From contig CAIJXH010000004.1 in NCBI GenBank assembly GCA_903824595.1, forward strand, positions 40,697 through 104,696: a stretch of DNA of 64,000 nucleotides, in the 5' to 3' direction. Numbering within the stretch: the first letter of the stretch is position 1; every line of letters begins with the position of its first letter. This stretch comes from an uncultured bacterium (GTDB lineage: Bacteria > Patescibacteriota > Minisyncoccia > Phycocordibacterales > UBA2100). Below the pieces are notes generated by a model that did no database searches, was not told the DNA's origin, and saw nothing but the letters and a program-made list of their open reading frames with translations. A program made the position numbers and the translations under genes. This document shows positions 209-60,286 of the stretch, in pieces.

Positions 209-347
209 CGCAATACTATACGAACGCGGGAGGAAGTCAAGCAACTTGCATATTTTTAGGAACATTGTACAATAGCACCCATATCAGCGTTATGTAATCA
301 TGTCGGGCGGGCAGAGCGCAGCTCACGCCACCCACCGCACATCAGAA

Positions 348-1778
348 ATGAACGCAATAAGTCTCGAAGAGACAATCCAAAAAAATAACAAGAGAAAGAA
401 GTCTCGTACTAAGAAAAAGAAAAACGGTTACAAAAAACTGTGGCTTCTTGGGCGAGAAGACGTGAATACTGGTCACTGCGACATCTCACCCGAGGGTGAG
501 CTTATCGTCCGCGAAGGCAACTTTCAATACAACATCCACGATATCATAAAAAAATACGGATCGCCTGCAAAAATATTTTTTCCGAGCATCATCAGTAATC
601 GAGTGCGCGATCTTATAGAAACATTCAACGCGTACATAAAAGTGACGGGGTATCGTGGTCGGTTTGCATATCATTACCCAATGAAAGCAAATCAAAATCG
701 CGAATTTGTACTGCCCGCCGTTGCCGAGGGTGCAAATTTGGAAACATCATCCGCCAATGAACTTTTTTTGGTGAAACGAATGATTGAGCAAGAAAAATTC
801 AACACGAGAATCAGAGTCATTTGCAATGGCCCAAAAACGGAACGGTATATCGAACTTATCGAGGAACTGCGCGCAAAGGGACTTTCGGTCATCCCCATTG
901 TCGAAAACGCCACAGAACTCGAACGTCTCAGTAAATTCAAGGGAGAAATCGGAGTGCGCGTCGACCTGAGCGTCAAGACAAATGGTCATTGGGACAAACA
1001 ATTCAGTCAGTTCGGATTTGCAGAACACGAAATTCTCGCGTTGGGAAAAGTGCGCAATCTTGCAGTATTGCACTATCATATTTCGAGCCAAATGCAGCAC
1101 ATCACCGATTTTATTCAACTCTTGAAACGCGCTCTCGAACTATACGCGAAGCTGCGCGAGAAAAATCCTGGACTTGATACTCTCAATATTGGCAGCGGCG
1201 CTTCTGTGCCATACGACAAACGAAAACGTCTCTATTCTGGAAAATCGCTCATAAGTCAAATCATTCGATCAGCAAAAAAACAATGCGAGACGCTCGGTAT
1301 ACGTCACCCCAATCTCATCGTTGAATGGGGGCAATACGTTATGGCACCTGCACAAATGACCATCTACAAAGTCATATCGGAAAAACAAGCATACAACAAA
1401 GGCGGTAACCACTGGTACACGATCGATGGCAGCTTCATCAACGACCTCACCGATACATGGGCGATCAAACAAAAATGGCACGTGGTTCCTGTCAACCATC
1501 TGCACAATCGTAAACTAACGCATACGTGGCTCGTTGGATCGACGTGCGATAGCGACGATCGGTATACGGCAGGCGGCTCATACATTCCGTTGCCTCGTCT
1601 TGAAGACTGCGATGAACTTTTCATTGCGCTCTTCGACACGGGAGCATATCAAGACACCCTTGCGTCACATCACTGTCTTTTGTCTGCTCCCATCAAACTC
1701 ATGGCGGCAAATGGCGAGGTCAAGGTCGTGCGCAAGCGCGAAACACCAGAAGATGTTGGCAAGCAATTTGGATGGTAG
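348..1778 (+). CDS. speA: Biosynthetic arginine decarboxylase (SpeA-like, alanine-racemase-fold PLP decarboxylase).
   Basis: Motifs HYPMKANQ (PLP-lysine region), LETSSANEL and VICNGPKTERYIEL parallel E. coli SpeA VYPIKVNQ / LEAGSKAEL / IVCNGYKDREYIRL. Start chosen at an internal Met (MNAISLEE); the ORF track starts at 300. Confidence 0.7.
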   Translation: MNAISLEETIQKNNKRKKSRTKKKKNGYKKLWLLGREDVNTGHCDISPEGELIVREGNFQYNIHDIIKKYGSPAKIFFPSIISNRVRDLIETFNAYIKVTGYRGRFAYHYPMKANQNREFVLPAVAEGANLETSSANELFLVKRMIEQEKFNTRIRVICNGPKTERYIELIEELRAKGLSVIPIVENATELERLSKFKGEIGVRVDLSVKTNGHWDKQFSQFGFAEHEILALGKVRNLAVLHYHISSQMQHITDFIQLLKRALELYAKLREKNPGLDTLNIGSGASVPYDKRKRLYSGKSLISQIIRSAKKQCETLGIRHPNLIVEWGQYVMAPAQMTIYKVISEKQAYNKGGNHWYTIDGSFINDLTDTWAIKQKWHVVPVNHLHNRKLTHTWLVGSTCDSDDRYTAGGSYIPLPRLEDCDELFIALFDTGAYQDTLASHHCLLSAPIKLMAANGEVKVVRKRETPEDVGKQFGW

Positions 1779-1833
1779 TATAGTGGAAGATTTGTACAAA
1801 TTTGATCGCATTATTTTGTAATTTTGTATCATC

Positions 1834-3066
1834 ATGACAAAAAATACCGGGTGCGTCCTTATTATCGGCGCGGGCGGCGTGGGAAGCGTTGTCGCGCACA
1901 AATGCGCACAAAATAAAGATGTATTCACCAAGATTCACCTCGCAAGTCGCTCGATCGGCAAACCCAACGCAATCAAAAAAGACATCAAGAAACGCTGGGG
2001 CGTTTCCATCACCACGCACATCGTCGACGCCGACAAATCCAAGCAGGTCGCCGCACTCATTCGCAAGATAAAGCCCGCGCTCGTCATCAACGTTGCGCTT
2101 CCCTACCAAGACCTCGCCATCATGGATGCGTGTCTTGCAACTGGCGTGCACTACGTCGACACCGCCAATTACGAACCGCGCGATAAAGCAAAGTTCGAGT
2201 ACAAGTGGCAGTGGGCGTACCAGAACAAATTCAAAAAGAAAGGCATCATGGCAGTCTTGGGAGCCGGATTTGATCCTGGCGTAAGCAACGCGTACTGTGC
2301 ATACGTCTTGAAAAAACACTTTGATACGGTGCGTTTCGTCGACATTCTCGACGCCAATGCCGGCAGCCACGAGAAGGCGTTTGCGACCAATTTCAACCCA
2401 GAGATCAACATTCGCGAAGTTACCCAAACCGTACGCCACTGGGCAAACGGGAAATGGATTGAAACTCCCGCGGTGATGGATAAAGGTAGCGTACATTTTT
2501 CTTTCGACTATCCAATCGCCGGACCAAAAGAAAGTTACCTGCTCTACCATGAGGAGATGGAATCGCTCGTCAAACATCTTCCCGGACTGGAACGCATGCG
2601 TTTCTGGATGACCTTCTCCGAAAATTACCTCAACCACTTGCGCGTCATGGAAAACATTGGTATCTCGAGCATCAAGCCAATCGACTTCCAAGGTAAAAAA
2701 ATAGTGCCGATTGAATTCCTGAAAGCGATCCTCCCCGATCCAGCTTCGCTCGCCACCAAATACACCGGCAAAACGGTAATCGGCTGCATCGTCACTGGAG
2801 TGAAAGACGGAAAAGAGAGCACGAAATACATTTACAACGTCTGCGACCACGAGGAATCATTCAAAGAAGTCGGCTCACAGGCGATCTCCTACACCACCGG
2901 CGTACCCGCGATGTCGGCAGCACTGATGGTGATGAAAGGCATCTGGAGCGGCAAAGGAGTGTTCAACATCGAACAGCTCGATCCCGAACCATTCCTCGAA
3001 ACAGTATCCAAGAACGGACTCCCCTTCACCGTCGTCGATTACACGCCATTGCCGGAGAAGATATAG
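1834..3066 (+). CDS. Carboxynorspermidine/carboxyspermidine dehydrogenase (saccharopine-dehydrogenase-like, NAD(P)-binding).
   Basis: N-terminal Rossmann motif VLIIGAGGVGSVVAHK. ~410 aa, the size of the CANSDH family. Sits between polyamine decarboxylases. Confidence 0.75.
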   Translation: MTKNTGCVLIIGAGGVGSVVAHKCAQNKDVFTKIHLASRSIGKPNAIKKDIKKRWGVSITTHIVDADKSKQVAALIRKIKPALVINVALPYQDLAIMDACLATGVHYVDTANYEPRDKAKFEYKWQWAYQNKFKKKGIMAVLGAGFDPGVSNAYCAYVLKKHFDTVRFVDILDANAGSHEKAFATNFNPEINIREVTQTVRHWANGKWIETPAVMDKGSVHFSFDYPIAGPKESYLLYHEEMESLVKHLPGLERMRFWMTFSENYLNHLRVMENIGISSIKPIDFQGKKIVPIEFLKAILPDPASLATKYTGKTVIGCIVTGVKDGKESTKYIYNVCDHEESFKEVGSQAISYTTGVPAMSAALMVMKGIWSGKGVFNIEQLDPEPFLETVSKNGLPFTVVDYTPLPEKI

Positions 3067-3089
3067 CGTGTTTGTGGTATAATACAGGG

Positions 3090-3314
3090 ATGGAATTCCG
3101 CCGCTCACTCTTCTGGGACGTTGATCCCTCGACCATCGACGAGGAGAAACATGCGCGCTACATCATCGAGCGCATTCTCGATTTCGGCACCGACAAAGAA
3201 GCCCGGTGGATGTATCAGCGGTATCCGCACACCATCATTCGCGACGTACTGAATCATTCTCGCGTGCTGATTCCAAAGACACGAGCGTTATGGAACGAAC
3301 TAATTCCTCAATGA
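3090..3314 (+). CDS. Small conserved protein (LFWDVDPSTID...YIIERILDFG). Putative cognate antitoxin/partner of the downstream AbiEii-type nucleotidyltransferase.
   Basis: 74-aa ORF whose stop overlaps the next start (ATGA). The motif resembles small partners seen next to DUF1814/AbiEii genes; function inferred from context only. Confidence 0.45.
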   Translation: MEFRRSLFWDVDPSTIDEEKHARYIIERILDFGTDKEARWMYQRYPHTIIRDVLNHSRVLIPKTRALWNELIPQ

Positions 3315-3976
3315 CATTACATCTTGATGCACTGCCGGCAGCCACGCAACGCGCGTTTGAGTTTTTCTCCAACGCAAAGTGGTTAGCCGACGACACATGG
3401 TACCTTGCGGGTGGCACCGCACTCACCCTTCAGGTCGGACACCGTAGTTCTGAAGATCTTGATTTCTTCACGCAACATAAAGAATTTTCACAAACAAGCG
3501 TATTGAATCATCTGTCTGAGCCGGATTGGGTGACGAACGACATGTGGGAAGGAACAATCTACGGCGCATATAAACATGCAAAGGTGAGCTTTATCGCCTA
3601 TCCATTTTTCGTGCCGAAAGCGGAAAAAATAGCTCATGGCGCGCTTTCAATGCTATCCATGCGCGACATCGCCGTCATGAAAATTATTGCGACCAGTCAG
3701 CGCGGACGCAAACGCGATTTCCTCGACCTCTATTGGTATGCAAAAAACGCCGAGCCGCTCCTTGACATCATCCTTCGCCTGCCGGAACAGTATCCGACAG
3801 TCGCACACGACTATCAGCATATTCTCAAAAGCATGCTGTATTTCTCCGACGCCGACAACGACCCGATGCCCACCCTCTTCTTCAAAGCCGACTGGGACGA
3901 AATCAAATCCTTCTTCCGTCGCGAGATTCCTCCGATTGCGAAACGATTGATGGGATTAGAAGAAAACAACATATGA
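3311..3976 (+). CDS. Nucleotidyltransferase AbiEii/AbiGii toxin-family protein (type IV TA toxin-like).
   Basis: Motifs LAGGTALTLQVGHRSSEDLDFF (GGTAL...R.SEDLDF) typical of the DUF1814/AbiEii NTase fold. Start at MTLHL, overlapping the upstream stop; its stop overlaps the nspC start (ATGA). Confidence 0.6.
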   Translation: MTLHLDALPAATQRAFEFFSNAKWLADDTWYLAGGTALTLQVGHRSSEDLDFFTQHKEFSQTSVLNHLSEPDWVTNDMWEGTIYGAYKHAKVSFIAYPFFVPKAEKIAHGALSMLSMRDIAVMKIIATSQRGRKRDFLDLYWYAKNAEPLLDIILRLPEQYPTVAHDYQHILKSMLYFSDADNDPMPTLFFKADWDEIKSFFRREIPPIAKRLMGLEENNI

Positions 3977-5196
3977 GTATTCGTCCCGCGTCTCGCTTAA
4001 TTCCAGAGCACGTACCCACCCCCGCCTTCGTCATCGAAGAACATGTACTTCGACATAATCTTTCGATTTTGAAGCGTGTGCGGGAGGCAACGGGCTGCAA
4101 GATGTTCCAAGCGCTCAAGACGTGGGCGACGTGGGAGCTATTCCCCATCGTGCGCGAGTACCTCGACGGCACGGAGGTGAGCTCGCTCAACGAAGCGCGG
4201 CTCGGCTACGATGAATTCAACCACAACGTGCACATGTACGCGCCCGCGTACAAAGATGAGGAATTTGCCGACATTCTGAAATACTGCTCAACCATCATTT
4301 TCAACTCCTTTGGTCAGTGGAAGAAATTCAAGCCGCAGGTGGAAGCATTCGAGAAAGAGACAGGGCAAAAGCGCGAGTGCGGCTTGCGCATCAATCCCGA
4401 GCACACCGGAAAAAATGAGCATGGCGGCTTGTGGAGTCCGTGCGCACCCGGCTCGCGTCTTGGCATCCGCATCAGCGAGTTTGAAACAGCGCTTGCGGCA
4501 GATCCGCACGCACTCGACGGCATCAGCGGATTCCATTTCCACATCTTCTTCGACAAGCAGCTACCCGACCTCGCCGATGCACTGCCAGTGATTGAAGAAA
4601 AATTTGGGAAATATTTCGCAGAGATGCAGTGGATCAACTTTGGCGGCGGTCAGCAGATCACCAACGACGAGTACGACGTGGAAGGACTCATCACACTGAT
4701 TACTGAGTTTCAGAAAAAACACGGCGTTGTCGCCCACCTCGAACCGGGTGCCGCCACTGTAAAACTCGTCGGCGCACTAGTCGCTTCCGTGCTCGACATC
4801 GTGCATCGCGACGATGTTCCGTATAAAATCGCCGTGCTCGACATGTCGTTCAATGCGCACACGCCCGACTTCCTCCTCTCCCCCGATCTCGATATGCCGA
4901 TACGTGGTGCACGCATCGTGCGCACCGCTTCCGACATCACGCAGGACGAGCACGCCTACCAGCTCGCCGGAGGCACCTGTGTGACCGGCGACAAACTCGC
5001 ACAGTTCCACATCTTCGACCAGCCACTCAAGCACGGCGACCGTATCGTGATGGAAGACGGCATCCAATACAACATGGTACAGTGCACAATGTTCAACGGC
5101 GTCCAGCATCCCGCAATCTACTTTCTGAAGGAAACCGGCGAAATGCACTTGATTCGCCGCTTTACGTACGACGATTTCCGCGCGAGAATGGGCTGA
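3973..5196 (+). CDS. nspC: Carboxynorspermidine decarboxylase (NspC/CANSDC; PLP-dependent, Orn/DAP/Arg decarboxylase fold).
   Basis: ~407 aa. N-terminal PAFVIEEHVLRHNL and GGGQQ / HLEPGAA motifs of the fold III decarboxylases. Adjacent to CANSDH. Confidence 0.75.
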   Translation: MSIRPASRLIPEHVPTPAFVIEEHVLRHNLSILKRVREATGCKMFQALKTWATWELFPIVREYLDGTEVSSLNEARLGYDEFNHNVHMYAPAYKDEEFADILKYCSTIIFNSFGQWKKFKPQVEAFEKETGQKRECGLRINPEHTGKNEHGGLWSPCAPGSRLGIRISEFETALAADPHALDGISGFHFHIFFDKQLPDLADALPVIEEKFGKYFAEMQWINFGGGQQITNDEYDVEGLITLITEFQKKHGVVAHLEPGAATVKLVGALVASVLDIVHRDDVPYKIAVLDMSFNAHTPDFLLSPDLDMPIRGARIVRTASDITQDEHAYQLAGGTCVTGDKLAQFHIFDQPLKHGDRIVMEDGIQYNMVQCTMFNGVQHPAIYFLKETGEMHLIRRFTYDDFRARMG

Positions 5197-6245
5197 TGGA
5201 AAAAGATTTTGATCCCAATGGAATCGGGCAAGAAAACGCAGGCATATTTGGATTACCATTCTCACCGAGCGAAGCGCAATTGGTACTTATCCCCGCACCG
5301 TGGGGCGTGACAGTTTCATATGGTGGAGGAACGCAAGAAGGACCGCGGGCAATCTATAAAGCGTCGCCGCAAATAGATTTCTACCACCCGAGCTATGGAT
5401 CAGATTCATGGAAACTCGGTATCGCGATGCTGCCACTACACGAGTGGGACGACGCATACCAGAAAGGACTCGCGCTGCGCACGCGCGCCGAGGCATACAT
5501 TGAAGAGCTCGGTCGCGGCACACCGAGCGATATGGAAGATGCGCTCGCCTCGATCAACACAGGATGTGGAGAATTCCACGCGCGCATAGAACGCACCGCT
5601 ATTGATCTCCTCAACCAAAACAAACTCGTCGGAATTGTGGGAGGCGATCACTCCACATCACTCGGACTCATGCGGGCACTCGCCAAGAAGCACGGCGACT
5701 TCGGCATTCTTCAAATCGACGCACACTGCGATCTGCGCGACGCGTACGAAGGATTCACGTACTCACATGCCTCGATTATGCACAACGCCCTGAAAATGAA
5801 CGGGGTGCAAAAACTCACACAGGTCGGTATTCGTGATTATTCTATCGGCGAGTACGAAACCATCGCCACATCCAACGGCCGCATCCACACGTTCTTCGAC
5901 ACCGATCTCACACAGCGGCAGTTCCGCGGAGAATCCTGGCACACGATCGTGGAGAGTATCGTGGAGACACTGCCGCAAAACGTATACGTCAGTTTCGACA
6001 TCGACGGACTTGATCCTGCGCTTTGTCCGCACACCGGCACTCCTGTACCGGGCGGATTGCAATTCCATGAAGCACTGTATCTTATCCGAGCTGTCGCGGA
6101 GTCTGGAAAACACATGATTGGCTTTGATGTGAACGAAGTGTCCCCGTCGCACGCAAACGAGTGGGACGCCAACGTCGGCATGCGCATCCTCTGGAACATT
6201 GCGCTCTGGGCGGCAAAGTCCAATGGACTCAACCCGCTTTCATGA
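5196..6245 (+). CDS. speB: Agmatinase (ureohydrolase/arginase family).
   Basis: Mn-binding motifs GGDHSTSLG, DAHCDLRD, SFDIDGLDP. Start at MEKDF overlaps the nspC stop (ATGA). Confidence 0.8.
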   Translation: MEKDFDPNGIGQENAGIFGLPFSPSEAQLVLIPAPWGVTVSYGGGTQEGPRAIYKASPQIDFYHPSYGSDSWKLGIAMLPLHEWDDAYQKGLALRTRAEAYIEELGRGTPSDMEDALASINTGCGEFHARIERTAIDLLNQNKLVGIVGGDHSTSLGLMRALAKKHGDFGILQIDAHCDLRDAYEGFTYSHASIMHNALKMNGVQKLTQVGIRDYSIGEYETIATSNGRIHTFFDTDLTQRQFRGESWHTIVESIVETLPQNVYVSFDIDGLDPALCPHTGTPVPGGLQFHEALYLIRAVAESGKHMIGFDVNEVSPSHANEWDANVGMRILWNIALWAAKSNGLNPLS

Positions 6246-6301
6246 CCTCACGCGCCCATACATTGATCTCGTCGCTTGAAAATGTTGTTCGCATATTCTT
6301 T

Positions 6302-6333
6302 TCTTTTGTTAATTGACTAAGGTTAACAAAAGA
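6302..6333. other. AT-rich perfect hairpin (TCTTTTGTTAA-10 nt-TTAACAAAAGA) between speB and tRNA-Ser. Possible terminator or structured spacer.
   Basis: 11-bp perfect inverted repeat read directly. No clean U-run follows, so terminator function is uncertain. Confidence 0.25.
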
Positions 6334-6372
6334 AAGCTGTGCCCCGTGTCCACTTTTTGGGGTACAGATCAC

Positions 6373-6460
6373 TGGCGGAGGGGGTGGGATTCGAACCCAC
6401 GGTGCCTTGCGACACACCTGTTTTCAAGACAGGAGCACTAGACCACTATGCGACCCCTCC
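6373..6460 (-). tRNA. tRNA-Ser (anticodon TGA) with long variable arm and encoded CCA.
   Basis: Reverse complement folds as acceptor GGAGGGG/CCCCTCC, anticodon stem CCTGT/ACAGG with loop CTTGAAA, long variable arm, T-arm GTGGGTTCGAATCCCAC, discriminator G, CCA. Confidence 0.8.
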
Positions 6461-6503
6461 TACGAGTCTTTTGTACCATACAACCACCCACCCCACCACT
6501 GCT

Positions 6504-8477
6504 CTACCGCACCGTTACCAATGCCGTCGCGCTTCGCGTGTTGCCGCCGAGCGTCGCGCATTGAATGGCAAACGTGGTCGATGTGGCAAGAGCAGGGGTG
6601 ATCACCGTCCCGTTGACCGCAGTATTGCTTGCGTTGGAGGCAGTGAAGCTGGGCAGATCGGGACTCGACACCACGCACGAGCTCATCCCCGACGTAACCC
6701 ACCCGAGCGTCGATTTGTCGCCCGCGACGATCGCTGCTGGATTTGCCACAAATATCAGTGACACGCGCGCCACCTGCACCGAACACTGCGCCGTACCCGT
6801 GAGCCCACTGTCTGTACACGTGAGACCAAACGTCGCCGTGTTGCTGCCTGCGAGAGGATTGGGCGCTGCCACCGTAACAGGACTCGAGCTTGCCGCCGAA
6901 AACCCTCCGCCCACCGCCGTCCCCGACGAACACGAATACGATACCGTAACAGGCGCGCCCACATCCGCCACGCTTGGCGCACACGCAATAGATGCCGTCG
7001 GGGTCGTTTTGGCTGCCACCGTTGCCGACGCAGCACCAGGCACACACTGCCATCCCGATATGCACGATCCGCTATACGTCGCACGCCACGCTCCACCTGT
7101 GCACGAGCTACTATCGGGCTGCGAGGGCTGATTACCACACGACGAAGCGGAAGGATAGGGAGAATACCCATACCCGCTATTGGCATTCTTGTTGCCAGAA
7201 AAGAGCCCCGATACCATGCTTCCTATCGCATATATGCCCGCCCCCTGAATGATGCCGTTCATCAACCCTCCGCTCTCACCACCCAAAAAGCCCGAGTAGT
7301 TGCCCTTCCCAAAGTCACCGCCAGGTCCTGCACCTATCTTGATGCAATCTTTGCCAATGAGCGAGTAGCCGTCGAGCAACGTACACGCGCCTGATTGCTT
7401 GTTCCTTTTCATACACGGCACATCGGGTGTACACGCTCCACCCGTGGCACCTTCAGCAATACTCTTTCTTTCTCCATCACCATTCAACTTTGGAGGAGGT
7501 TGATTGGGATTAGCTGGAGCAGCTGGATCAGGTGAGGCTGGAGATTGAGCGGGCTTCGGTTGAATGTTTTCTGCCTGCGTGCCATTGTCTGCTTGTGTAT
7601 CACCAAGGTAAGTCTCGCGTACGTAAGATCCCTGAGGGGTCCTGCTGTTAGGATTGGTGCAGACTCCCTCTCCATTATTAGCATGATCTTTGCACACAAG
7701 TTGTGCCGGCGGAACAACGGGAGCCGGTGGACGCAAGAAATCTCCACATGTTCCTGCTGTGCGACTGGAGATTCGACTAACCGGTTCTTTTCCGTCTCCT
7801 GTGTAACGGCCTTCTTTATTATAATCTGGAATATTTGTAAACTCACACACCGTGCTAGCTCCTGAGTTGTCCTTCACCAACAATCTGCATTCTGTTGCGT
7901 TAATGTCTGCACAATCGTTGTCTTGTTTCGCACGTTCACATCTAGCTTCAAGAATATCTTTTGAATTTGAAGAAGGTGGTGTGCAGGAAACGTTTCCAAA
8001 ACTACAATAATTATTCTGATATTTTTTCCACTCCCCCCCCGTAAATACACCTCTGGAGTTCTCGCTTTCGTAGGTAACGTTGCCTAGAGTACACCTTTCG
8101 TTCCGAGAATTAGCGCTCCATTCAGGAATTAGGTTCTGATTTCCTTTTACATAATAGAAACATTGTGTCGATCTGGCTTTTGCAATAATACAATTGTTCA
8201 TTGTATCAGGTGTGTCACTTGCGAGACACTCAGTAAATTTCTGCTTGTAAATAACTCGCACCTCTCCAGGAAAACAATTCTTGATTGTAATTTTATCGTT
8301 GTTTGATATCGACGCGGCCTCTGCGGCCGCGGTCTGCGACGCGCGGTTGAGCTGTGCAAACTGCGCAGTGGCGGTGGCGCCGAGCATGCCGACAAGCATG
8401 ATACCTCCCAAGATCGAAGACCCGCGCGCTACCCGAGATGAACACCGATACATCTCGTCATGATCGCGCGAAAGCAC
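6504..8477 (-). CDS. Large secreted/membrane-anchored Gly/Ser/Thr/Cys-rich low-complexity protein (hypothetical).
   Basis: 657-aa ORF with N-terminal hydrophobic segment and many Cys. Its C-terminal ~80 aa share a module with ORF 33387..34841 (see findings). Confidence 0.5.
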   Translation of the reverse strand: MLSRDHDEMYRCSSRVARGSSILGGIMLVGMLGATATAQFAQLNRASQTAAAEAASISNNDKITIKNCFPGEVRVIYKQKFTECLASDTPDTMNNCIIAKARSTQCFYYVKGNQNLIPEWSANSRNERCTLGNVTYESENSRGVFTGGEWKKYQNNYCSFGNVSCTPPSSNSKDILEARCERAKQDNDCADINATECRLLVKDNSGASTVCEFTNIPDYNKEGRYTGDGKEPVSRISSRTAGTCGDFLRPPAPVVPPAQLVCKDHANNGEGVCTNPNSRTPQGSYVRETYLGDTQADNGTQAENIQPKPAQSPASPDPAAPANPNQPPPKLNGDGERKSIAEGATGGACTPDVPCMKRNKQSGACTLLDGYSLIGKDCIKIGAGPGGDFGKGNYSGFLGGESGGLMNGIIQGAGIYAIGSMVSGLFSGNKNANSGYGYSPYPSASSCGNQPSQPDSSSCTGGAWRATYSGSCISGWQCVPGAASATVAAKTTPTASIACAPSVADVGAPVTVSYSCSSGTAVGGGFSAASSSPVTVAAPNPLAGSNTATFGLTCTDSGLTGTAQCSVQVARVSLIFVANPAAIVAGDKSTLGWVTSGMSSCVVSSPDLPSFTASNASNTAVNGTVITPALATSTTFAIQCATLGGNTRSATALVTVR

Positions 8478-14334: not shown

Positions 14335-14694
14335 TTACGCATGCGCCACGCACGTACGCGCGGCGGGATTGGCTTCGAGACGCTCGGTGGCGATTGGTTC
14401 GCCGCCCACTTCGCACACACCATAGGTGCCATTCTCAATTTTCTTGAGCGCGTCATTCACATCACCGCGACGCATTTCCAACTCTTCTACAAGTGGAACG
14501 TTGATCATCAATTCTTCTATGTTGTCGGCAGCGTCTGTCGGGTCAGCTTCTCCACCAGACACTCCGTGTATCGAACCTTGCCAATCGCCATTTTTCCGCG
14601 ACCCGTGTTGCATCAAATCTTCGTCGAGCGTATCGCGTTCCGTCAAAAGGCGCGCGCGGAACGCTTCTATATGTGCATGAGTACGTGTATTCAT
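14335..14694 (-). CDS. DksA/TraR-family protein with degenerate zinc finger.
   Basis: C-terminal GTYGVCEVGGEPIATERLEANPAARTC resembles the DksA zinc-finger region (only 2 Cys); coiled-coil N-terminal part. Start at MNTRTH. Confidence 0.5.
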   Translation of the reverse strand: MNTRTHAHIEAFRARLLTERDTLDEDLMQHGSRKNGDWQGSIHGVSGGEADPTDAADNIEELMINVPLVEELEMRRGDVNDALKKIENGTYGVCEVGGEPIATERLEANPAARTCVAHA

Positions 14695-14727
14695 ATGCTC
14701 ATATGATACCAGACTCGCGAACATCGT

Positions 14728-40289: not shown

Positions 40290-40985
40290 ATGGATAGCAT
40301 GTCTACCCGACCACCCATGGCGATTGGCGAATGGTACCACTGCTACACTCGCGGGGTCGACAAGCGAAAAGTATTTGAATCGCAGGAAGATTATGATCGT
40401 TTTCTGGTGCATCTTTACGTCGCCAATGGAACGCGAAATATTCGCGTATCCGATATGCGCGACACGCGACTTAAGAGGGTTTTGGAGGATGAATCGCTCG
40501 ATCGAGGTCATCCGATTGTTGAAATTGGAGCGTACTCGCTCATGCCAACCCATGTTCATTTTCTGTTGCGGGAAATCAGAGACGGCGGTATTGCGCTTTT
40601 CATGCAAAAGACCTTCACCGGGTATACGATGTATTTCAATAACAAGAACGAGCGCACTGGGGCGCTTTTTTCCGGCACGTTCAAATCGAAACACGTAAAC
40701 GAAGATCGGTATCTGAAACAAGTCATTCCCTACATACTCCTCAACCCCGTGGAATTGTTCTATCCCGACTGGAAGAACGGCATCGGCGATATTGATTCCG
40801 TGGAGAAAAAATTGCTCGCGTACCCCTACTCAAGTTTGCAAGAGTTTCAGAGTGTTAGCATCGAACGCCCGCATAAAAAAATCGTGAACGGCTCCTTTGA
40901 AATGTATTACGAGCAACTCCCCACACTCTCACAAATGCTCAGTGACGCGCAAGAGTATTATCGGGAACGCCGTCCGCAGGTTTAA
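40290..40985 (+). mobile_element. IS200/IS605-family HuH (Y1) transposase of the REP-associated (RAYT, TnpA_REP) type.
   Basis: EWYHCYTRG...YSLMPTHVHFLL (HuH motif) and C-terminal Tyr-containing helix. 231 aa. Flanked by identical REP palindromes; its stop codon TAA is the loop of REP copy 2. Confidence 0.75.
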
Positions 40986-41855: not shown

Positions 41856-43196
41856 TCAGTAGATCGGGACACAATTCGAGTCAAATTGAGATAAGTCGAC
41901 AGTCTGATTATTCCAGATCTTCAAGTCACCAGATCTCGGAAGACAGCAGTTACGACGCATAGTATTCGATGGATTGCTCTCCACGCGTGCCCGCTCTCGA
42001 CAACTTACTTGCCACTGGATGGAACCGACAAAATGGGCTAAGCAGTAATGCTCACCAGCTTGCCAATCGGACCAGGTAGCGTTTGCAAGATTATTTTCTT
42101 TAAATATACAGAGTGTTGGATCATTATTCTGAGTTGCTTTAAATGTTCGATTGCGAGAGACACATCTTATATAGTACCTCTGTGCATTCTTCATATTCAC
42201 CTCCATATCCTCGTTATCCATGTTATCAGCATCAATAATCGATACCGCAGGGTTGTTTTGAGGTACATCCTGTACTTGATCCCACCCATCTTTCATTATT
42301 ATCGTCGCCGATGGGATAACTTCGAGACCCGTCACGCCAGGATAAAGCGCTTCACAATTTGACTGCCCCGATTGTGCAGCAGCCTGTGATTTTGAATCCT
42401 TACAATTGAGATTATATTGATTGTCTCGCAGCGTACAGTCTTTTAGATTTTGTTCATACTGCGGATCCGCCTGATCAAGACACTGGGTCAACTGCCTGCG
42501 CCCTTCCTGAACCACCACGCCCTCCGTATCTCCACCCGAAAGATAGCATAGTGATGGCAGATGTATCTTCGTAGCAATGGCAAATATGAGATCTCGTCCC
42601 CCCATTACAGGTGCGAAAGGCCCCACGATCACTACGATCATGAGTGCGGTCAGGACGGACGCGTATTGTGTGCGTCGTATCGGATACTGCGCGCCACGTA
42701 TCACTCTCGATACTAGTATCGAAAGACCCGCAAAAAGCGCTATCAGCAAGCAAGCGGCCATGTTTCTAAAAACAAATACTACTTCACCGGCAGCAGCCAT
42801 TGCTGCAATGAGAGGAAATGGAAGTCTAGTGCCGCTGCCAAGACGTACATCTACATCTGCGAGGAGGAGGAATAAACATGAAGACAATACCAGCACCAAT
42901 AGAGTTAAGAAAACTGAAACCAATCCCCCAACTGAATAAACAAGTGCATCCGATACCGGACGGGAAGTATCAGGAGATATAGAGCGTGCGACGAGGAATG
43001 GTCCGCAGAGCGCCAATATGACTAAACCAAGATAATAAACTTCCTCCCCTATTACCCGATATAAGACAAGGTGTGCGATTGTATACACTGGCAAGAAAAC
43101 AAAGATAAAAAAGAAAGTTAGCGCGCTGAAAAAAAGTATGTGTCTATATTTTTTTTTCATCAGCACAAATATAGCACGGGTGCATGCACGAGACAA
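41856..43196 (-). CDS. Polytopic membrane protein with Cys-rich C-terminal extracellular domain (hypothetical). Cargo gene between the ung 3' fragment and ung.
   Basis: 446-aa ORF, ~6 N-terminal TM helices, C-terminal domain with ~10 Cys. Confidence 0.45.
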
Positions 43197-47884: not shown

Positions 47885-49111
47885 TTATTGTACTGTGCAA
47901 AGATGGTTTATTCTGCTTACACTGAACCGAAAAGATTGCAAAAATGTACACCTTGGCAATGAAGCAGGGACAGTTCCATCAATATAGGTAAAAGTACCCT
48001 CAGTCAAACTACCTGTTGTTCCTGATAATGGTTTATAAGAATACGTGTTCGGTTGCTGTTTTGGAACACTCACAGAATCGCCAATGTTCACAACATCTCC
48101 AACAAAATATCTTTGTGTTAAATCTCTCAGACCAGATCCGTTTTGCATTGATTGAACTGTTTGCAATCCCACAATCCCATCTACTGTTAAATTATGTGCT
48201 TGTTGATATTGCCTTACCGCTGCTTCAGTTTTTGGACCAAATACACCATCTGATTTGCCGGTATTATATCCATTAGCTGTCAGAAAATCTTGCAAATTAG
48301 ATACATTTTTACCACGATCCCCAACACTCAACACATCCCCGTTGTTCTGGATATCGTTTAGAGTTTGCCCTATGGCACTTGGAGAAACTGGCTTCGCTGT
48401 TCTGGCAGCTTGTGGTATCGGGGCGAATCCCGCCTTCTTGCACTGCGCATCCACCAAAGCCTGGACTTGTTTGATACACGTCGCACACACAGTATTAATC
48501 TCCCTGAATTCTTCTTTAAAACCATTGCCTTTGTACACACCATTCTCCGATCCATCGGTACACCTACACTCCTCGGCGGTTGAATCTGATAACACGGCGA
48601 CATTTGGCTTGAGCCACAAAAACCACACCGCTCCATATCCTTGTTGCGCTTGCTCTTCGGAAAGGTGGTACTGGGTGCCACATAGATCCATGCTCTCTTT
48701 GCTTATCATGGCCCCTGCTTCATTATTCGACAATGTCAGACGACTTTTTATATTTGTATTCTTGTCAGCCCGATACGCACCTTTCGCATCACGAGATGAG
48801 ACACGAAAACACTCAAGATTCTTTGCTAAGCTAGCTGGCCTATCCTGAAAATCCCTTGAAACAGCAACTACTCTCCCCACCTTGATTCCGACAGACTTTC
48901 CCTCAAAATTCTCCGCAATATGTTCGTGACACCTGAACAAGCTCTGGAGCAGATTCGCATCAACACCCGATGTACTCGCCCCCCCCGCCACCTGACCCGC
49001 ACTCGGCACCGACTGCGAAGAAACGGCGATGGTGAAGAAAAGCGCGGCGGCAATGATACCAGCGGGGAGCGTGGGAAGGATGGTGGTTTTATATCGCACG
49101 GTGTTACTCAT
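47885..49111 (-). CDS. Secreted protein with C-terminal peptidoglycan-binding (PG_binding_1-like) domain.
   Basis: LQDFLTANGYNTGKSDGVFGPKTEAAVRQYQQAHNLTVDGIVGLQT matches the PGRP/PG-binding_1 repeat consensus. Confidence 0.5.
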   Translation of the reverse strand: MSNTVRYKTTILPTLPAGIIAAALFFTIAVSSQSVPSAGQVAGGASTSGVDANLLQSLFRCHEHIAENFEGKSVGIKVGRVVAVSRDFQDRPASLAKNLECFRVSSRDAKGAYRADKNTNIKSRLTLSNNEAGAMISKESMDLCGTQYHLSEEQAQQGYGAVWFLWLKPNVAVLSDSTAEECRCTDGSENGVYKGNGFKEEFREINTVCATCIKQVQALVDAQCKKAGFAPIPQAARTAKPVSPSAIGQTLNDIQNNGDVLSVGDRGKNVSNLQDFLTANGYNTGKSDGVFGPKTEAAVRQYQQAHNLTVDGIVGLQTVQSMQNGSGLRDLTQRYFVGDVVNIGDSVSVPKQQPNTYSYKPLSGTTGSLTEGTFTYIDGTVPASLPRCTFLQSFRFSVSRINHLCTVQ

Positions 49112-55514: not shown

Positions 55515-57130
55515 GCCGCCGACCATCGGTTTATCACCGCAGGATTTTTGATGTTGCACCAGCCAACCGTCGCGTCGGTGTTGTCTCCCCATGCCGTGAC
55601 CGTATCTTTGAGGAGCGTGTTCATGGCATTTTGCGTATCGCTTTGTTTTTGTGCAGCGTTCTGTGCATCATACTGCGTATGCAGAGCCCCTTGCGCGACA
55701 AGCTGATCGAGCATCTGCAGCGATGCCTGCTGTTCGGCAACCGTCTTTGCATTGGCTATACCCGAGATCATCGTGTTGATTCTTGCGAGTGCCGTTTGTG
55801 ATGTGTGAATGTTGTCGATCGTTGTCGAAGCAAGAGGAGCAATTTGCGCGTCGATGACGCCTTGCGACGCGAGTGTCGACGTTGCGATCTTTTCTTTCGG
55901 AGCTTCTTGCGAAACACTTCCATCGGAAGCAGGTGTTGTCGAACCCATACACACGCTGTCTACAGGAGGCGCAACACACACATGCCTTTCTGGATGATCA
56001 TCTTTCTGATACGTGATCAAATCCCAGCATTTCGTTTCTGCAGCTCGTAACTGCCCGATTGTTTGCGTAAGATTTTGTGCGGTTGCATTCATTGCCGACA
56101 AATACTTGAGTTCATTCTGACGCGCCGCTGTCAGAATGCCAAGCGCCGCGTTGCCTGTGGCACCCACGACACCATTGCTCGATGCGGTGGTCATAGCATC
56201 CAGGAACGATGGTCCGCCGTTGTTTTGTGCAAGTCCTTTTAGTCCTTGCGCACTTGTCATCACTTGCGTCGAAACACCTGCGTACAGCGAACTAATCATC
56301 TGTCCGATATCGGTAGCATTTTCGAGTTGAGAAAACCCTGACTGTACGAGCTGATTTGCATTGCTCGCAACCATCGCACCAGGCGTAACCGTGATGGTAT
56401 TTCCATTATCGTCAAGCTGTTCGACTCCATAAATGCCATTGCCCGTTTGGAGTTTGAACAGCATCTGACCAACCGAGGTGTCTACTTGACGGTCGACCGC
56501 ATTTCGCACCAGCGATGCCGCACCCAATGGATTACATGCGGGATTCATGAAATTGTGAAAATCGTCAAACGAGAACGGGCGCGACGTGGGGTTGGTAATG
56601 TCTGCTTTGAGATCACCGCCGTAATTGCATACCAGCTGGTTGTTGGTGCGTGTTTCTGCCATGTATTGACGCGCGACAGTTGAGCGCACTTGATTGCGGA
56701 ACGCTGGATTGACTTCGTTGATGTTCATAAGCTGTGAAAGCGCCGCCTTATCCCCTGCTGCCACAATATCGGCATTTAGATCGACAGGCCACATAGGATT
56801 GCCGTTACGACCCGTGAGGAATCCTGAAAGACCTTTTTTCGTGAACGAAGCGGTCGCGCTTTCACGCAGACGACTCACCAGCGGGCGCAAGACGCACTGG
56901 AGATAATCCATAATTCCAGAATTGAGCGTCACCGCCGCGTCGTTGACAGGGACGAACGTGCCGCCCATCGCTGCAAACGTTCCAGAGCTTATACTCGCAC
57001 CACCAATGTTGCTGCACCCAAATATTCCATTACTTTGATACTGATACCCAGCGGTTTGCGCCGACACAGACGACGTCGTCAGCATCAAGCCGACCATTAT
57101 GATTCCCACGGTGCGAATGATCTGGCTCAT
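55502..57130 (-). CDS. Secreted hypothetical protein (signal peptide), T4SS-cluster member.
   Basis: MSQIIRTVGIIMVGLMLTTSSVSAQT signal. 542 aa, Asn/Gln/Ala-rich. Confidence 0.45.
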   Translation of the reverse strand: MSQIIRTVGIIMVGLMLTTSSVSAQTAGYQYQSNGIFGCSNIGGASISSGTFAAMGGTFVPVNDAAVTLNSGIMDYLQCVLRPLVSRLRESATASFTKKGLSGFLTGRNGNPMWPVDLNADIVAAGDKAALSQLMNINEVNPAFRNQVRSTVARQYMAETRTNNQLVCNYGGDLKADITNPTSRPFSFDDFHNFMNPACNPLGAASLVRNAVDRQVDTSVGQMLFKLQTGNGIYGVEQLDDNGNTITVTPGAMVASNANQLVQSGFSQLENATDIGQMISSLYAGVSTQVMTSAQGLKGLAQNNGGPSFLDAMTTASSNGVVGATGNAALGILTAARQNELKYLSAMNATAQNLTQTIGQLRAAETKCWDLITYQKDDHPERHVCVAPPVDSVCMGSTTPASDGSVSQEAPKEKIATSTLASQGVIDAQIAPLASTTIDNIHTSQTALARINTMISGIANAKTVAEQQASLQMLDQLVAQGALHTQYDAQNAAQKQSDTQNAMNTLLKDTVTAWGDNTDATVGWCNIKNPAVINRWSAAWKL

Positions 57131-58014
57131 GGTGTTCGTGAGCGCTCGTATTGCGCGAGGTCGTTGAACGCATTGAGCATCACTTGTTCCTTGTCCTGGT
57201 AGGTGCGCAAAAGCGCCGCGCTCGCAAACGGATCATCAACATGCGCGATCATCGCATCGAGTGTTGCCGAAAACGCCGCAAGCGCATTGATAATTGCAAC
57301 ATGGAACGAGAGAAGGTTTGCAGGGACGACAACAGCGCTCACGCCTCGAACAGCGAGCTGATAATTCGCAACCTCTTCCTTGAGCTGATCGAGATACGAA
57401 ACATCGTGTGACGCAATGTAATTGGCATAAAGCTTCAATTCGTAGTCGGGATTTTTGAGGAGTGGTGCGAGTGCCTCCCGCATATCACTCCGATACGTAA
57501 GCATGCGCTGATATGACGTATCGGGACTTGAAGAGAAGTCTGAAGCGGTATAAGTAGGATGCGAGACGTTTGCCTGAAGCGTCTGTGCAATATTTTGTGC
57601 AATAAGCGCTCCTTTTTCTGGAGTGAAACTGCCGCTTTTTTGCAGCACCGCATACGTTTCTGCGAACGTGCCCACCACATTGCCCGCAATGTTCGCAATG
57701 CCGTCAGGATCGTGAGTGTCGTGCAGCACAACAGGCGACGAACTTGAAATATCGAGCAGATCTCTCTGCCATGGCTCATCGTTTGATGGCGATGCTTCTT
57801 CAGACGTCACGCTTGATGTTGCCGCGAACACATTAGTGGCGACTACCATAGAACGTGCCGAAACAATGCGTCCCACAGCCACAATCAAAAGCGTGCAAAA
57901 AGAAATCGCGGCGAGAATTGCCATTGGAGAAAGCGCCTCGGTATGCGAGCGTTCGTCATTCATCTCCTGATTATACCAGTACAAGCACTGCAGTGCGTCT
58001 TCGCCCCAGAACAA
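57127..58014 (-). CDS. Membrane-anchored hypothetical protein, T4SS-cluster member.
   Basis: One TM (AILAAISFCTLLIVAV), 295 aa. Confidence 0.4.
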   Translation of the reverse strand: MFWGEDALQCLYWYNQEMNDERSHTEALSPMAILAAISFCTLLIVAVGRIVSARSMVVATNVFAATSSVTSEEASPSNDEPWQRDLLDISSSSPVVLHDTHDPDGIANIAGNVVGTFAETYAVLQKSGSFTPEKGALIAQNIAQTLQANVSHPTYTASDFSSSPDTSYQRMLTYRSDMREALAPLLKNPDYELKLYANYIASHDVSYLDQLKEEVANYQLAVRGVSAVVVPANLLSFHVAIINALAAFSATLDAMIAHVDDPFASAALLRTYQDKEQVMLNAFNDLAQYERSRTP

Positions 58015-60039: not shown

Positions 60040-60284
60040 TGTTCAATACGGAACGCGCGAATATCGCGCACGGAGAGCGTAAACCATGGCAGAGCTTTGA
60101 GCGCGATGATCGCCTGAAACAAATTCGCCATGTCTTCGCTCTTTGTTACATACACACTGCCCTGTATCCTCTCAAAATCAAAATGCTCAAGTGTCGCGGC
60201 GATGTCCGTGTATGCCTGCGTGACGTTCTTGGGATGATGCTTGCTCGCATCGGCGACGACAAGATCGAACGTAATGGCGAACAT
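60003..60284 (-). CDS. vapD: VapD-family endoribonuclease (Cas2-like fold).
   Basis: MFAITFDL...IQGSVYV...WF..SVRDIRAFRI...DFT parallels H. influenzae VapD (MYAIAFDL...TQGSVYV...WFKKSVRDIRAFKV..DFT). Confidence 0.75.
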   Translation of the reverse strand: MFAITFDLVVADASKHHPKNVTQAYTDIAATLEHFDFERIQGSVYVTKSEDMANLFQAIIALKALPWFTLSVRDIRAFRIEQWSDFTKVIKQP

Positions 60285-60286
60285 AC

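Follow-up and report, generated by a model that had tools for sequence, protein, structure and literature searches.

Gene Content and Organization of the Locus

The window analyzed here (the whole 64,000-nt stretch of DNA) belongs to a Kaiserbacteria-like, uncultivated patescibacterium, and encodes four spermidine-pathway enzymes on one strand, in the order speA-CASDH-CASDC-speB (Table 1). The gene identities point to an operon of the alternative (carboxyspermidine) pathway type, with spermidine or norspermidine as the predicted product. It is interrupted by a pair of genes, located between the carboxy(nor)spermidine dehydrogenase gene (CANSDH/CASDH) and nspC, which encode a small protein with a DUF6922 domain and a nucleotidyltransferase (NTase). 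The CANSDH C-terminus (...PLPEKI) and the NspC N-terminus (MSIRPAS...), which face the pair from either side, both agree with those of relatives. At least three samples yielded contigs with the same pair-in-operon arrangement. An earlier note on this DNA had placed a small ORF and an NTase with the AbiEii signature between these two genes, and this description is borne out by Pfam matches for both proteins and by homologues numbering from hundreds to thousands.

Table 1. Features of the polyamine operon and the inserted gene pair, with coordinates in the window.
Feature	Coordinates	Strand	Evidence and remarks
speA-like biosynthetic arginine decarboxylase, first operon gene	300..1778	+	Pfam Orn_Arg_deC_N; NCBIfam arginine decarboxylase, E 2e-61, score under curated cutoff
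Carboxy(nor)spermidine dehydrogenase/synthase (CANSDH/CASDH)	1834..3066	+	NCBIfam NF043000 (carboxynorspermidine synthase), E 2e-122, 409.1 bits, under curated cutoff of 800; Sacchrp_dh_NADP and Sacchrp_dh_C
Predicted extended -10 element, TGGTATAAT	3075..3083	+	Sequence reading; ends 6 nt before ATG 3090
DUF6922 protein, 74 aa, candidate antitoxin/regulator of the NTase	3090..3314	+	ATG start, MEFRRSLFWDVDPSTID...; Pfam PF21956, E 5e-18, 64.7 bits (cutoff 27)
ATGA overlap, small-ORF stop/NTase start	3311..3314	+	Sequence reading
DUF1814 (AbiEii/MenT-type) nucleotidyltransferase, predicted toxin, 221 aa	3311..3976	+	Pfam AbiEii PF08843, E 3.4e-17, 63.6 bits (cutoff 22.5); 14 PADLOC AbiEii models, best E 7e-8
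NTase motifs I and II, G34-G35 ... R45-S46-S47-E48-D49-L50-D51	3410..3463	+	
NTase motif III (K124 ... R131) and motif IV (R135-D136-F-L-D139, '+DxxD' pentad)	3680..3727	+	Invariant or nearly so
ATGA overlap, NTase stop/nspC start; right-hand insertion edge	3973..3976	+	Sequence reading
nspC, carboxy(nor)spermidine decarboxylase	3973..5196	+	TIGR01047, E 9e-121, 402.8 bits, just under curated cutoff of 409.05
TGATG junction, nspC stop/speB start, 1-nt overlap	5194..5198	+	Sequence reading
speB-like agmatinase, last operon gene	5196..6245	+	Pfam Arginase, E 8e-58; NCBIfam TIGR01230, E 7e-48, score under curated cutoff
tRNA-Ser(TGA), convergent with the operon end	6373..6460	-	Context only, outside the system as defined

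Several details of the gene boundaries differ from the earlier description. The small ORF had been started at 3072, which is an upstream TTG that would give an 80-aa version of the protein; the ATG at 3090 is favored instead, given an alignment with 29 homologues and the position of the -10 box. The 256-aa version of the NTase is simply a GTG-extended ORF beginning at 3206. At its other end, the NTase has a C-terminal tail (…GLEENNI) that exceeds those of most homologues by ~4-5 residues. ATGA junctions had been reported on both sides of the NTase gene and between nspC and speB; the first two, among them the NTase/nspC overlap, are present, while the third reads TGATG. Nor is the pair joined to the operon by overlaps throughout, since 23 nt separate the CANSDH stop codon (3064-3066) from ATG 3090. 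The 4-nt overlap within the pair is identical in three homologous cassettes (L004, L044, and L045), and longer overlaps are called in five others (L010, L050, L056, L058, and L062). Overlaps of 4 nt are the commonest class in compact prokaryotic operons.

The Nucleotidyltransferase

The NTase is predicted to be a toxin of the AbiEii/MenT (DUF1814) family, and has 2220 homologues, with 55-67% identity across distant lineages of Parcubacteria. Motifs I and II of these enzymes follow the definition hG[GS]x(9-15)DhD, motif II also containing an Arg that is specific to the family, and two further motifs, III and IV, are recognized (PMC3985639). The NTase conforms to this definition (L-A-G34-G35 ... 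R45-S-S-E-D49-L-D51), and in an alignment of 38 homologues, residues G35, R45, S47, D49, L50, and D51 are invariant. Motif III reads V-M-K124-I-I...R131, with a Lys among hydrophobic residues and an Arg ~7 residues on, and the motif III/IV stretch aligns with the sequence 'TKARDLFDL' of JHP933. The R-x-S-x-D-L-D pattern of motif II fits R63/T65/D67/D69 of AbiEii and R76/S78 of MenT3, and the invariant S47 sits at the phospho-acceptor position, two residues after the motif-II Arg (R+2). The NTase has thus lost none of the four catalytic motifs, and the phospho-acceptor position (R-x-S) known from MenT3/AbiEii is also kept.

The AlphaFold2 (AF2) model of the NTase (pLDDT 95) has a predicted bilobed fold like that of the MenT structures. 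In a Foldseek search against the PDB, the top matches were 8AN5_B, 6Y56, and 8AN4_A (MenT1 for 8AN5 and 8AN4, MenT4 for 6Y56), with a probability of 1.00, E-values of 2e-5 to 1e-4, and TM-scores of 0.45-0.56, which represent moderate similarity. Non-toxin nucleotidyltransferases, namely ANT(2''), CCA-adding enzymes, and poly(A) polymerases, follow close behind. A better fit to such non-toxin enzymes had been named as the outcome that would count against a toxin, and the best matches in both sequence family and fold are to the toxin family. The placement of the NTase in the AbiEii family, paired in toxin-antitoxin (TA) style with a conserved small upstream ORF, is thus upheld.

The DUF6922 Partner Protein

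The small ORF matches DUF6922 in Pfam, with no hit in PADLOC or NCBIfam. It had been proposed for comparison with AbiEi and other antitoxin families, and it proves to be a DUF6922 protein instead of an AbiEi homologue. Clustering at 50% identity leaves about 2,100 representatives of the domain, and its conservation, on which the TA interpretation had been made to depend, is high: homologues share 58-81% identity and 15 invariant residues. DUF6922 is at least as conserved as its NTase partner, which is unusual for an antitoxin. The AF2 model (pLDDT 91.8) predicts a compact domain of four helices with no meaningful match among solved folds, and searches of PDB sequences, with the single sequence and with a profile, returned chance-level hits only (Pumilio and similar). 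No DNA-binding or known antitoxin fold was detectable by sequence or fold searches, and comparison with solved antitoxin chains, including those of 8AN5 and 6Y8Q, revealed neither sequence nor structural similarity.

The function of DUF6922 is further suggested by the company it keeps in other genomes. Domain fusions of three kinds occur elsewhere: HTH_17+DUF6922, AbiEi_2+DUF6922, and DUF6922-AbiEii, the last as natural single-chain proteins (P0432 and P0450). The fusions to HTH_17 and AbiEi_2 have the usual antitoxin architecture, and the DUF6922-AbiEii fusion connects the domain to the toxin in Rosetta-stone fashion. Both suggest an antitoxin role, in which DUF6922 may serve as an alternative neutralizing module. 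On balance, we lean toward the view that DUF6922 is a fourth, previously unrecognized neutralizing (antitoxin) domain for DUF1814/MenT-type NTase toxins, which in Patescibacteria would be a stand-alone protein and in other organisms would be attached to HTH_17, to AbiEi_2, or to the toxin itself. A literature search for DUF6922 in the library used found no mention of the domain, and one for NTase toxin-antitoxin systems in Patescibacteria found no description of its pairing with these enzymes.

A Predicted Promoter of the Cassette

In addition to its conserved proteins, the pair has a predicted promoter of its own. An extended -10 element of the form TGnTAnnnT lies 6-9 nt ahead of the start codon in 11/11 distinct homologous cassettes, against a background rate of 0.75% for any ATG; in the window, -10-like elements occur at 6 of 46 putative gene starts, a rough background rate obtained from a crude census of selected ORFs. 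The element was found by sequence reading and by comparison with the homologous cassettes, and a scan for consensus sigma-70 promoters did not list it, as it has no -35 match. Its consistent position, 6-9 nt before the ATG in all 11 cassettes, implies a transcript predicted from the consensus to be leaderless or nearly so. Because this predicted promoter is common to all of the homologous cassettes, the cassette is still to be regarded as an autonomous unit, of which only the 3' end is fused to nspC.

Probable Insertion at an Operon Junction and Mobility of the Cassette

The junction at which the pair lies was compared with that of related operons, as the earlier note had advised. Relatives with the same gene order without the pair include L034, L029, L032, and L064, and when the junction is empty (L034, L029, L032, L016, L040, L042, and L038) it measures 4-19 nt. 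The DUF6922 and NTase genes are absent from all of the ~30 related CANSDH-nspC junctions examined. In the closest relatives, other cargo occupies the site: an ANT(2'')-like NTase in L013 and a 274-aa ORF in L035, with an EamA transporter and two ORFs in L064 and an insertion sequence (IS) in L031; the cargo of L013 and L064 includes genes on the opposite strand. Given that the junction is a spacer of 4-19 nt when empty and holds unrelated cargo in the closest relatives, sequence comparison indicates that it is an insertion hot spot, so that the position of the pair is no sign of a functional connection to polyamines.

The age and mode of the insertion are constrained to a lesser extent. No flanking direct or inverted repeats above chance level were found around the insert in the window, and no insertion scars are visible there. 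Since the G+C content and GC3 of the pair are within the range of the neighboring operon genes, composition gives no evidence of recent foreign origin, and the insertion is undatable by this means. The nearest relative found via nspC has 77% identity in NspC, and the insertion is therefore bracketed loosely.

Mobility is evident from the homologous copies. Pairs of DUF6922 and AbiEii genes with 58-81% identity are spread over the Patescibacteria in unrelated neighborhoods: behind a sortase gene (L004, L044, and L045, where the copies are bordered by duplicated sortase 3' ends), beside Fic (L008), beside fmt/def (L010), and after pstB (L056). Others lie in toxin-antitoxin islands, one of which (L050) contains the cassette along with a second AbiEii pair, MNT-HepT, and YafQ, and another (L062) three AbiEii pairs, a PIN gene, and a Gp49/HTH pair. 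One copy, in L062, is truncated (154 aa). These homologous cassettes are without polyamine neighbors. As is generally expected of chromosomal TA modules, the conserved pair travels together between unrelated surroundings and is grouped with other such modules. A search of a phage collection gave two weak hits only (29-35% identity) and one of a plasmid collection gave no hit for DUF6922; carriage on known mobile replicons thus finds no evidence in these collections.

Interpretation of the Inserted Pair

Taken together, we consider it likely that the segment from ~3067 to 3972 is a self-contained, two-gene TA-like cassette that was inserted, presumably recently, in this lineage only, with the 4-19-nt spacer between CASDH and nspC as its landing site in a Kaiserbacteria-like patescibacterium. 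By analogy with characterized members of its family, the NTase would block translation by adding nucleotides to the 3' ends of tRNAs. DUF6922 would most likely be the cognate neutralizer of the NTase encoded by the overlapping gene, and may act by binding the enzyme, possibly inducing auto-phosphorylation of Ser47, as MenA1, MenA3, and AbiEi do to their own toxins. The cassette promoter would start transcription at or beside the ATG, yielding a leaderless mRNA. As the cassette is without a terminator and its stop overlaps the nspC start, nspC-speB would be co-transcribed with it, and their translation is probably coupled to that of the NTase gene. Such coupling would replace the ancestral tight linkage of CASDH and nspC, and probably made the insertion tolerable.

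An alternative is that the pair, as a conserved patescibacterial NTase and its accessory protein, is beneficial and non-toxic, with a role for example in tRNA/RNA 3'-end modification, in small-molecule nucleotidylation, or as a defense sensor fused to an effector. The identity of 58-67% among NTases across Parcubacteria also fits a beneficial enzyme, and conservation over distant Parcubacteria is shared by both proteins (55-67% for the NTase and 58-81% for DUF6922), with the partner conserved at least as well as the enzyme. The natural DUF6922-AbiEii fusions, and the ANT(2''), CCA-adding, and poly(A) polymerase folds that rank close behind MenT, are likewise compatible with it. We nonetheless regard such a role as unlikely, given that the toxin family provides the best matches in both sequence and fold, that the NTase keeps the phospho-acceptor along with every residue linked to toxicity, and that the pair varies in location, occurs in tandem or multiple copies and in TA islands with a truncated copy among them, and is, at any one site, absent in the majority of related genomes.

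A TA-like cassette could also have acquired a role in its present operon. The earlier note had reasoned that a pair translationally coupled to pathway genes is not a free-standing addiction module, and had offered regulation of polyamine synthesis or domestication of the NTase as candidate explanations. The first point is not supported for a pair with its own predicted promoter, a 23-nt spacer on its left side, and mobile homologues. Recruitment of the pair to gate polyamine synthesis, or domestication of the NTase for the pathway, would be in keeping with the ATGA overlap of the NTase and nspC genes, the lack of a terminator, and the location of the cassette promoter right upstream of nspC-speB, as well as with the fixation of this arrangement in contigs from several samples. 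We found no evidence for regulation, however, in the ~30 related operons whose junctions are without the pair, in the homologous cassettes lacking polyamine neighbors, or in the sister lineages with unrelated cargo at the same junction; 4-nt overlaps are in any case commonplace. Evidence for domestication is similarly absent, as all of the toxin motifs are intact and show no relaxed or altered constraint. We therefore consider recruitment or domestication very unlikely, and any physiologically meaningful link of the cassette to polyamine output improbable. Equally doubtful is the joint proposition that DUF6922 acts as an antitoxin and that nspC-speB is controlled by the transcription and translation of the cassette.

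Also very unlikely is an anchoring of the cassette by the operon, in which imprecise deletion would abolish nspC-speB expression and a selfish cassette would be stabilized by position instead of, or besides, post-segregational killing: the tight 3' fusion with nspC and the ancestral junction of 4-19 nt, which makes it probable that nspC depends on upstream translation, agree with this idea, but the argument is purely positional, and opposite-strand cargo at the junction (L013 and L064) indicates that insertions are tolerated without coupling.

The inserted pair is thus best interpreted as a TA-like cassette, and the insertion itself as an ordinary one, into a permissive operon junction of a very compact genome, with the nspC overlap best read as the price of keeping the operon unbroken. 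The predicted leaderless-type promoter and the cargo hot spot in a spermidine operon are small points that bear on gene flow in Patescibacteria.

Comparison With Known Toxin-Antitoxin Systems

The closest parallels are found in the MenAT systems of Mycobacterium tuberculosis (MenT1-4 with MenA), whose toxins belong to the same Pfam family (PF08843). Like the pair described here, these systems are bicistronic with a small upstream partner gene, and the toxins share motifs I-IV with the NTase, which has Ser at the position of S78 in MenT3 and T39 in MenT1. The partner is where they differ: DUF6922 has no sequence or fold match to solved structures, including those of AbiEi and MenA type (the MenA comparison covered the solved antitoxin chains), and its predicted compact four-helix domain contrasts with MenA1, which acts through a single extended helix. 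Membership of the partner in a known MenA family (MenA1, MenA2, or MenA3/4, the last being AbiEi-like) is therefore not supported by these comparisons with solved chains. MenA antitoxins themselves come from three unrelated families, a pattern into which a further partner family would fit. The host also differs, being a member of the Patescibacteria, in which tRNA modification, toxicity, and phosphorylation are predicted by analogy.

A second relative is AbiE (AbiEi-AbiEii), an abortive infection system assigned to type IV and now proposed as type VII. The NTase shares with AbiEii the G-G, R-x-[ST]-x-D-x-D, K...R, and +DxxD elements, and in both systems the partner gene comes first and overlaps the NTase gene in a two-gene operon, which here has a predicted promoter of its own. 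The AbiEi gene (COG5340, with a wHTH and a CTD) is not part of the pair, and PADLOC accordingly finds the AbiEii half only. As the DUF6922 partner has no detectable DNA-binding domain, autoregulation of the AbiEi type at inverted repeats would not be expected. A more distant comparison is with JHP933 of Helicobacter pylori (PDB 4O8S/4OK0), the sole solved structure found by sequence profile (E 0.014), which shares the stretches 'R-x-S-E-D-L-D-F' and 'R-D-x-F-D-L' with the NTase; it is a plasticity-zone DUF1814 NTase, very distant in sequence and without a DUF6922 partner.

Toxin and antitoxin are also known as fused proteins, as in CapRel(SJ46) and EzeT. The natural DUF6922-AbiEii fusions (P0432 and P0450) resemble these, whereas in the window the two are separate proteins. 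Among the systems compared, DUF6922 stands out in that its gene, in Patescibacteria, consistently precedes one for a MenT/AbiEii-type NTase. If its role is confirmed, it would constitute a new neutralizer family for a toxin class studied for antitoxin-induced auto-phosphorylation, and, at 74 residues, could provide a minimal model for that process.

Operon Structure

The CASDH (carboxy(nor)spermidine dehydrogenase) and nspC (carboxy(nor)spermidine decarboxylase) genes of the window belong to a row of six same-strand genes (300-6245), identified from the called ORFs and the underlying sequence, in which a 74-aa DUF6922 gene and a 221-aa AbiEii-type nucleotidyltransferase (NTase) gene, together termed the cassette, occupy the CASDH-nspC junction (see the table). 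Against their NCBIfam models, the dehydrogenase (409 bits; carboxynorspermidine synthase) and NspC (402.8 bits) score strongly, yet fall short of the curated thresholds (800 and 409.05, respectively). Given the presence of speA and speB, the predicted pathway is the alternative spermidine route, which leads from arginine through agmatine, putrescine, and carboxyspermidine to spermidine.

An earlier note on this DNA described the pair as spliced into the operon by ATGA overlaps. These are present between the small ORF and the NTase gene (3311-3314) and between the NTase gene and nspC (3973-3976). The nspC-speB junction, reported there as a further ATGA, is a TGATG with a 1-nt overlap, and the left edge of the pair is not an overlap, since a 23-nt spacer lies between the dehydrogenase stop and the ATG at 3090. 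The 256-aa protein also mentioned is merely the maximal GTG-started ORF; homologues begin at its M36 (ATG 3311).

The operon end faces a convergent gene for tRNA-Ser(TGA). tRNA genes are frequent integration targets and tRNA-Ser is the preference of MenT3; its position here is probably a coincidence. Beyond it, a minus-strand ORF encodes a 657-aa product with a high S, T, G, A, and P content, possibly a secreted or surface protein; the 3' part of this ORF (especially 6450-7200) has a G+C content of 0.61-0.64, compared with ~0.52 in the window.

Features of the window and of the loci compared with it
Locus	Feature	Coordinates	Strand	Basis or remark
Window	speA-like arginine decarboxylase	300-1778	+	Pfam, NCBIfam
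Window	CASDH	1834-3066	+	Pfam, NCBIfam carboxynorspermidine synthase
Window	Extended -10 box	3075-3083		
Window	74-aa ORF	3090-3314	+	Pfam DUF6922
Window	221-aa ORF	3311-3976	+	Pfam AbiEii/PF08843, PADLOC AbiEii
Window	nspC	3973-5196	+	Pfam, NCBIfam
Window	Agmatinase (speB)	5196-6245	+	Pfam, NCBIfam
Window	tRNA-Ser(TGA)	6373-6460	-	
Window	657-aa ORF	6504-8477	-	
Window	Further genes with TGnTAnnnT	14335-14724, 40290-40985, 41856-43196, 47885-49111, 57127-58014, 60039-60398		
L013	ANT(2'')-like NTase	3944-4462	-	CASDH-nspC junction
L013	Methyltransferase	5695-6405	+	Between nspC and speB
L035, L036	274-aa ORF	L035:2663-3487	+	No Pfam match; ATGA overlap with nspC
L064	EamA-type transporter, two minus-strand ORFs	4064-5784		Closest relative (77%)
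L031	IS4-type transposase	4365-5921		Alphaproteobacterium
L060	DUF6922 gene (89 aa), 70-aa and 223-aa ORFs	4001-5429		No Pfam match recorded for the latter two
L050	Island: DUF6922-AbiEii, second small-ORF-AbiEii pair, MNT-HepT, YafQ-type pair	3801-7637		
L062	Island: three AbiEii pairs, PIN gene, Gp49/HTH pair	632-4692, 7301-7904		
L004	Second small ORF	3641-3841		
L004	Sortase repeats	3495-3624 / 5432-5558		
L044	Sortase repeats	1239-1309 / 2220-2290		
L045	Sortase repeats	4935-4960 / 5880-5905		

The Nucleotidyltransferase

By all sequence and fold criteria tested, the 221-aa protein is a member of the DUF1814/AbiEii/MenT family. It matches Pfam AbiEii far over threshold, along with 14 PADLOC AbiEii models, and in a 38-sequence alignment all motifs described for the AbiEii family (PMC3985639) vary little or not at all: motif I (G34-G35), motif II (R45-x-S47-x-D49-L-D51), motif III (K124...R131), and motif IV, or +DxxD (R135-D136-x-x-D139). 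With S47 two residues past the motif-II arginine, the protein has a serine where MenT3 (S78 in R76-x-S78; PMC11375011) and AbiEii (T65 in R63-x-T65; bioRxiv 10.64898/2026.01.19.700257) have their phospho-acceptors. The confident AlphaFold model (pLDDT 95) finds its best solved-structure matches, at moderate TM-scores of about 0.5, in MenT1 (8AN5, 8AN4) and MenT4 (6Y56), with ANT(2''), poly(A) polymerases, and CCA-adding enzymes ranking behind; the DUF1814 protein JHP933 is the sole PDB entry detectable by sequence profile. The earlier note's toxin-antitoxin interpretation, which a better fit to non-toxin NTases would have undone, is thus not contradicted by these matches. The C-terminus (…GLEENNI) extends 4-5 residues beyond that of most homologues; a stop codon shifted so as to create the nspC overlap would fit this, but tail length varies in the family.

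The DUF6922 Partner

The 74-aa protein belongs to Pfam DUF6922 (E 5e-18) and has zero matches in NCBIfam and PADLOC. It is predicted to form a compact four-helix domain with high confidence, and solved structures searched by sequence and by fold yielded no meaningful relative; it is therefore not a homologue of AbiEi. Conservation of the small ORF, on which the toxin-antitoxin interpretation had been made to depend, is strong, with homologues 58-81% identical and 15 invariant residues.

An exhaustive profile search returned 2120 DUF6922 representatives, mostly stand-alone proteins of about 75-100 aa. Proteins of 140-165 aa (P0444, P0481, P0424, P0402) place DUF6922 behind an N-terminal DNA-binding domain of the HTH_17 family, one (P0495) has an AbiEi_2 antitoxin domain in that position, and two (P0432, P0450) are single-chain DUF6922-AbiEii fusions. 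In the classical antitoxin layout, a DNA-binding domain precedes the domain that binds the toxin. On the basis of these layouts and the Rosetta-stone fusions to the NTase, DUF6922 is probably an NTase-interacting, neutralizing module. The alternative, that the pair constitutes a non-toxin system, is kept in consideration, as the conservation of DUF6922 is unusually high for an antitoxin. The stand-alone form in the window is the minimal version, with no DNA-binding domain.

Cassette Mobility and the Insertion Site

The two genes form a mobile cassette. Homologues of the NTase fall into 2220 clusters, many of them from named Parcubacteria groups, and in nine of ten other versions examined the DUF6922 gene lies directly upstream of the AbiEii gene, the overlap usually being at least 4 nt. 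The exception, L060, has no recognizable AbiEii gene; its downstream ORFs could encode a divergent NTase or a different partner. Neighborhoods are unrelated to each other across loci: the cassette lies behind sortase genes (L004, L044, L045), adjoins a Fic gene and glycan genes (L008) or fmt/def (L010), and follows pstSCAB (L056) or a CsgG-like gene (L058). On either side of the sortase-linked copies, the 3' end of the sortase gene is duplicated as direct repeats (L004, 83 nt at 99% identity; L044, 71 nt at 82%), an integration scar and a hint at the cassette's mode of movement. Two loci, L050 and L062, are toxin-antitoxin islands of parcubacterial hosts, with a YafQ/ParE-type pair among their contents; the DUF6922-linked NTase of L062 is truncated (154 aa). 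The second small ORF of these islands encodes 64-66 aa, belongs to no Pfam family, and occurs also in L004.

NspC scans recovered relatives at 22 genome loci, 9 metagenome loci, and one further contig, the nearest being Kaiserbacteria-like (NspC 72-77% identical). The pair is missing from the CASDH-nspC junction in all of them, a comparison the earlier note had proposed. The junction spans just 4-19 nt in nine loci (L034, L029, L032, L016, L040, L042, L038, L020, L033), which argues that tight coupling of nspC to its upstream gene is the ancestral state. In several of the closest relatives (L013, L035, L036, L064, and L031; see the table) this junction holds other cargo of mutually unrelated kinds; it is thus a gene-insertion hot spot, with the toxin-antitoxin cassette among the genes it has received. 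Neither flanking repeats nor a compositional contrast with the surroundings was found around the pair in the window. The identical arrangement on contigs from at least three samples indicates that it is fixed in this population.

At 65-77% identity, the patescibacterial CASDH and NspC of the window (1834-5196) resemble those of Hyphomicrobiales/Rhodomicrobium-type alphaproteobacterial MAGs (L014-L023, L027, L028, L030, L031, L033, L037, L038) as closely as they do those of other Patescibacteria, a pattern suggestive of spermidine gene transfer between phyla.

A Predicted Promoter Within the Cassette

The sequence TGGTATAAT is a perfect extended -10 box ending 6 nt before the ATG at 3090. A standard -35/-10 scan overlooked it because there is no -35 match, and a Shine-Dalgarno sequence is absent upstream of the cassette. 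TGnTAnnnT ends 6-9 nt before the start codon in all 11 distinct cassettes, which, being homologous, are not independent cases; as a base rate, 0.75% of all ATGs in these sequences have it, and 6 of 46 putative gene starts in the window pass a lenient test. Retention of this element within otherwise diverged, unalignable flanks implies selection. In bacteria the transcription start usually falls about 7 nt downstream of the -10 hexamer, so that the mRNA from the predicted promoter should be leaderless or nearly so. In six further putative genes the motif lies 6-8 nt before a candidate start codon, and some genes of this organism may therefore use leaderless-type promoters.

Proposed Mechanism

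We propose that the NTase would act as a toxin that modifies tRNA 3' ends, blocking translation like MenT1, MenT3, and AbiEii, and that DUF6922 would neutralize it by binding, possibly via induced auto-phosphorylation of S47. The cassette would be transcribed from its own leaderless promoter and by operon read-through. With no terminator, and with the NTase stop overlapping the nspC start, nspC-speB would share a transcript with the NTase gene, and their translation would probably be coupled to that of the NTase. A speculative rival view is that a selfish element is anchored by its position within the operon. For domestication of the NTase or a specific regulatory link to polyamines, both raised in the earlier note, we saw no evidence.

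Comparison With Known Systems

Insertion into a polyamine operon is ordinary; the modestly interesting part is the uncharacterized DUF6922 family together with its conserved, predicted leaderless promoter. DUF6922 is unmentioned in the literature searched, which likewise yielded no description of a DUF6922-AbiEii variant. AbiEi-AbiEii has been reported in a patescibacterium (bioRxiv 10.1101/2024.03.08.584096). While the NTase falls within the DUF1814/AbiEii/MenT family by sequence and fold, the pair lacks AbiEi and is therefore not a canonical AbiE system. MenT toxins are known with three unrelated antitoxin families; DUF6922 belongs to no known MenA family, and would be a further antitoxin family for MenT-type toxins.
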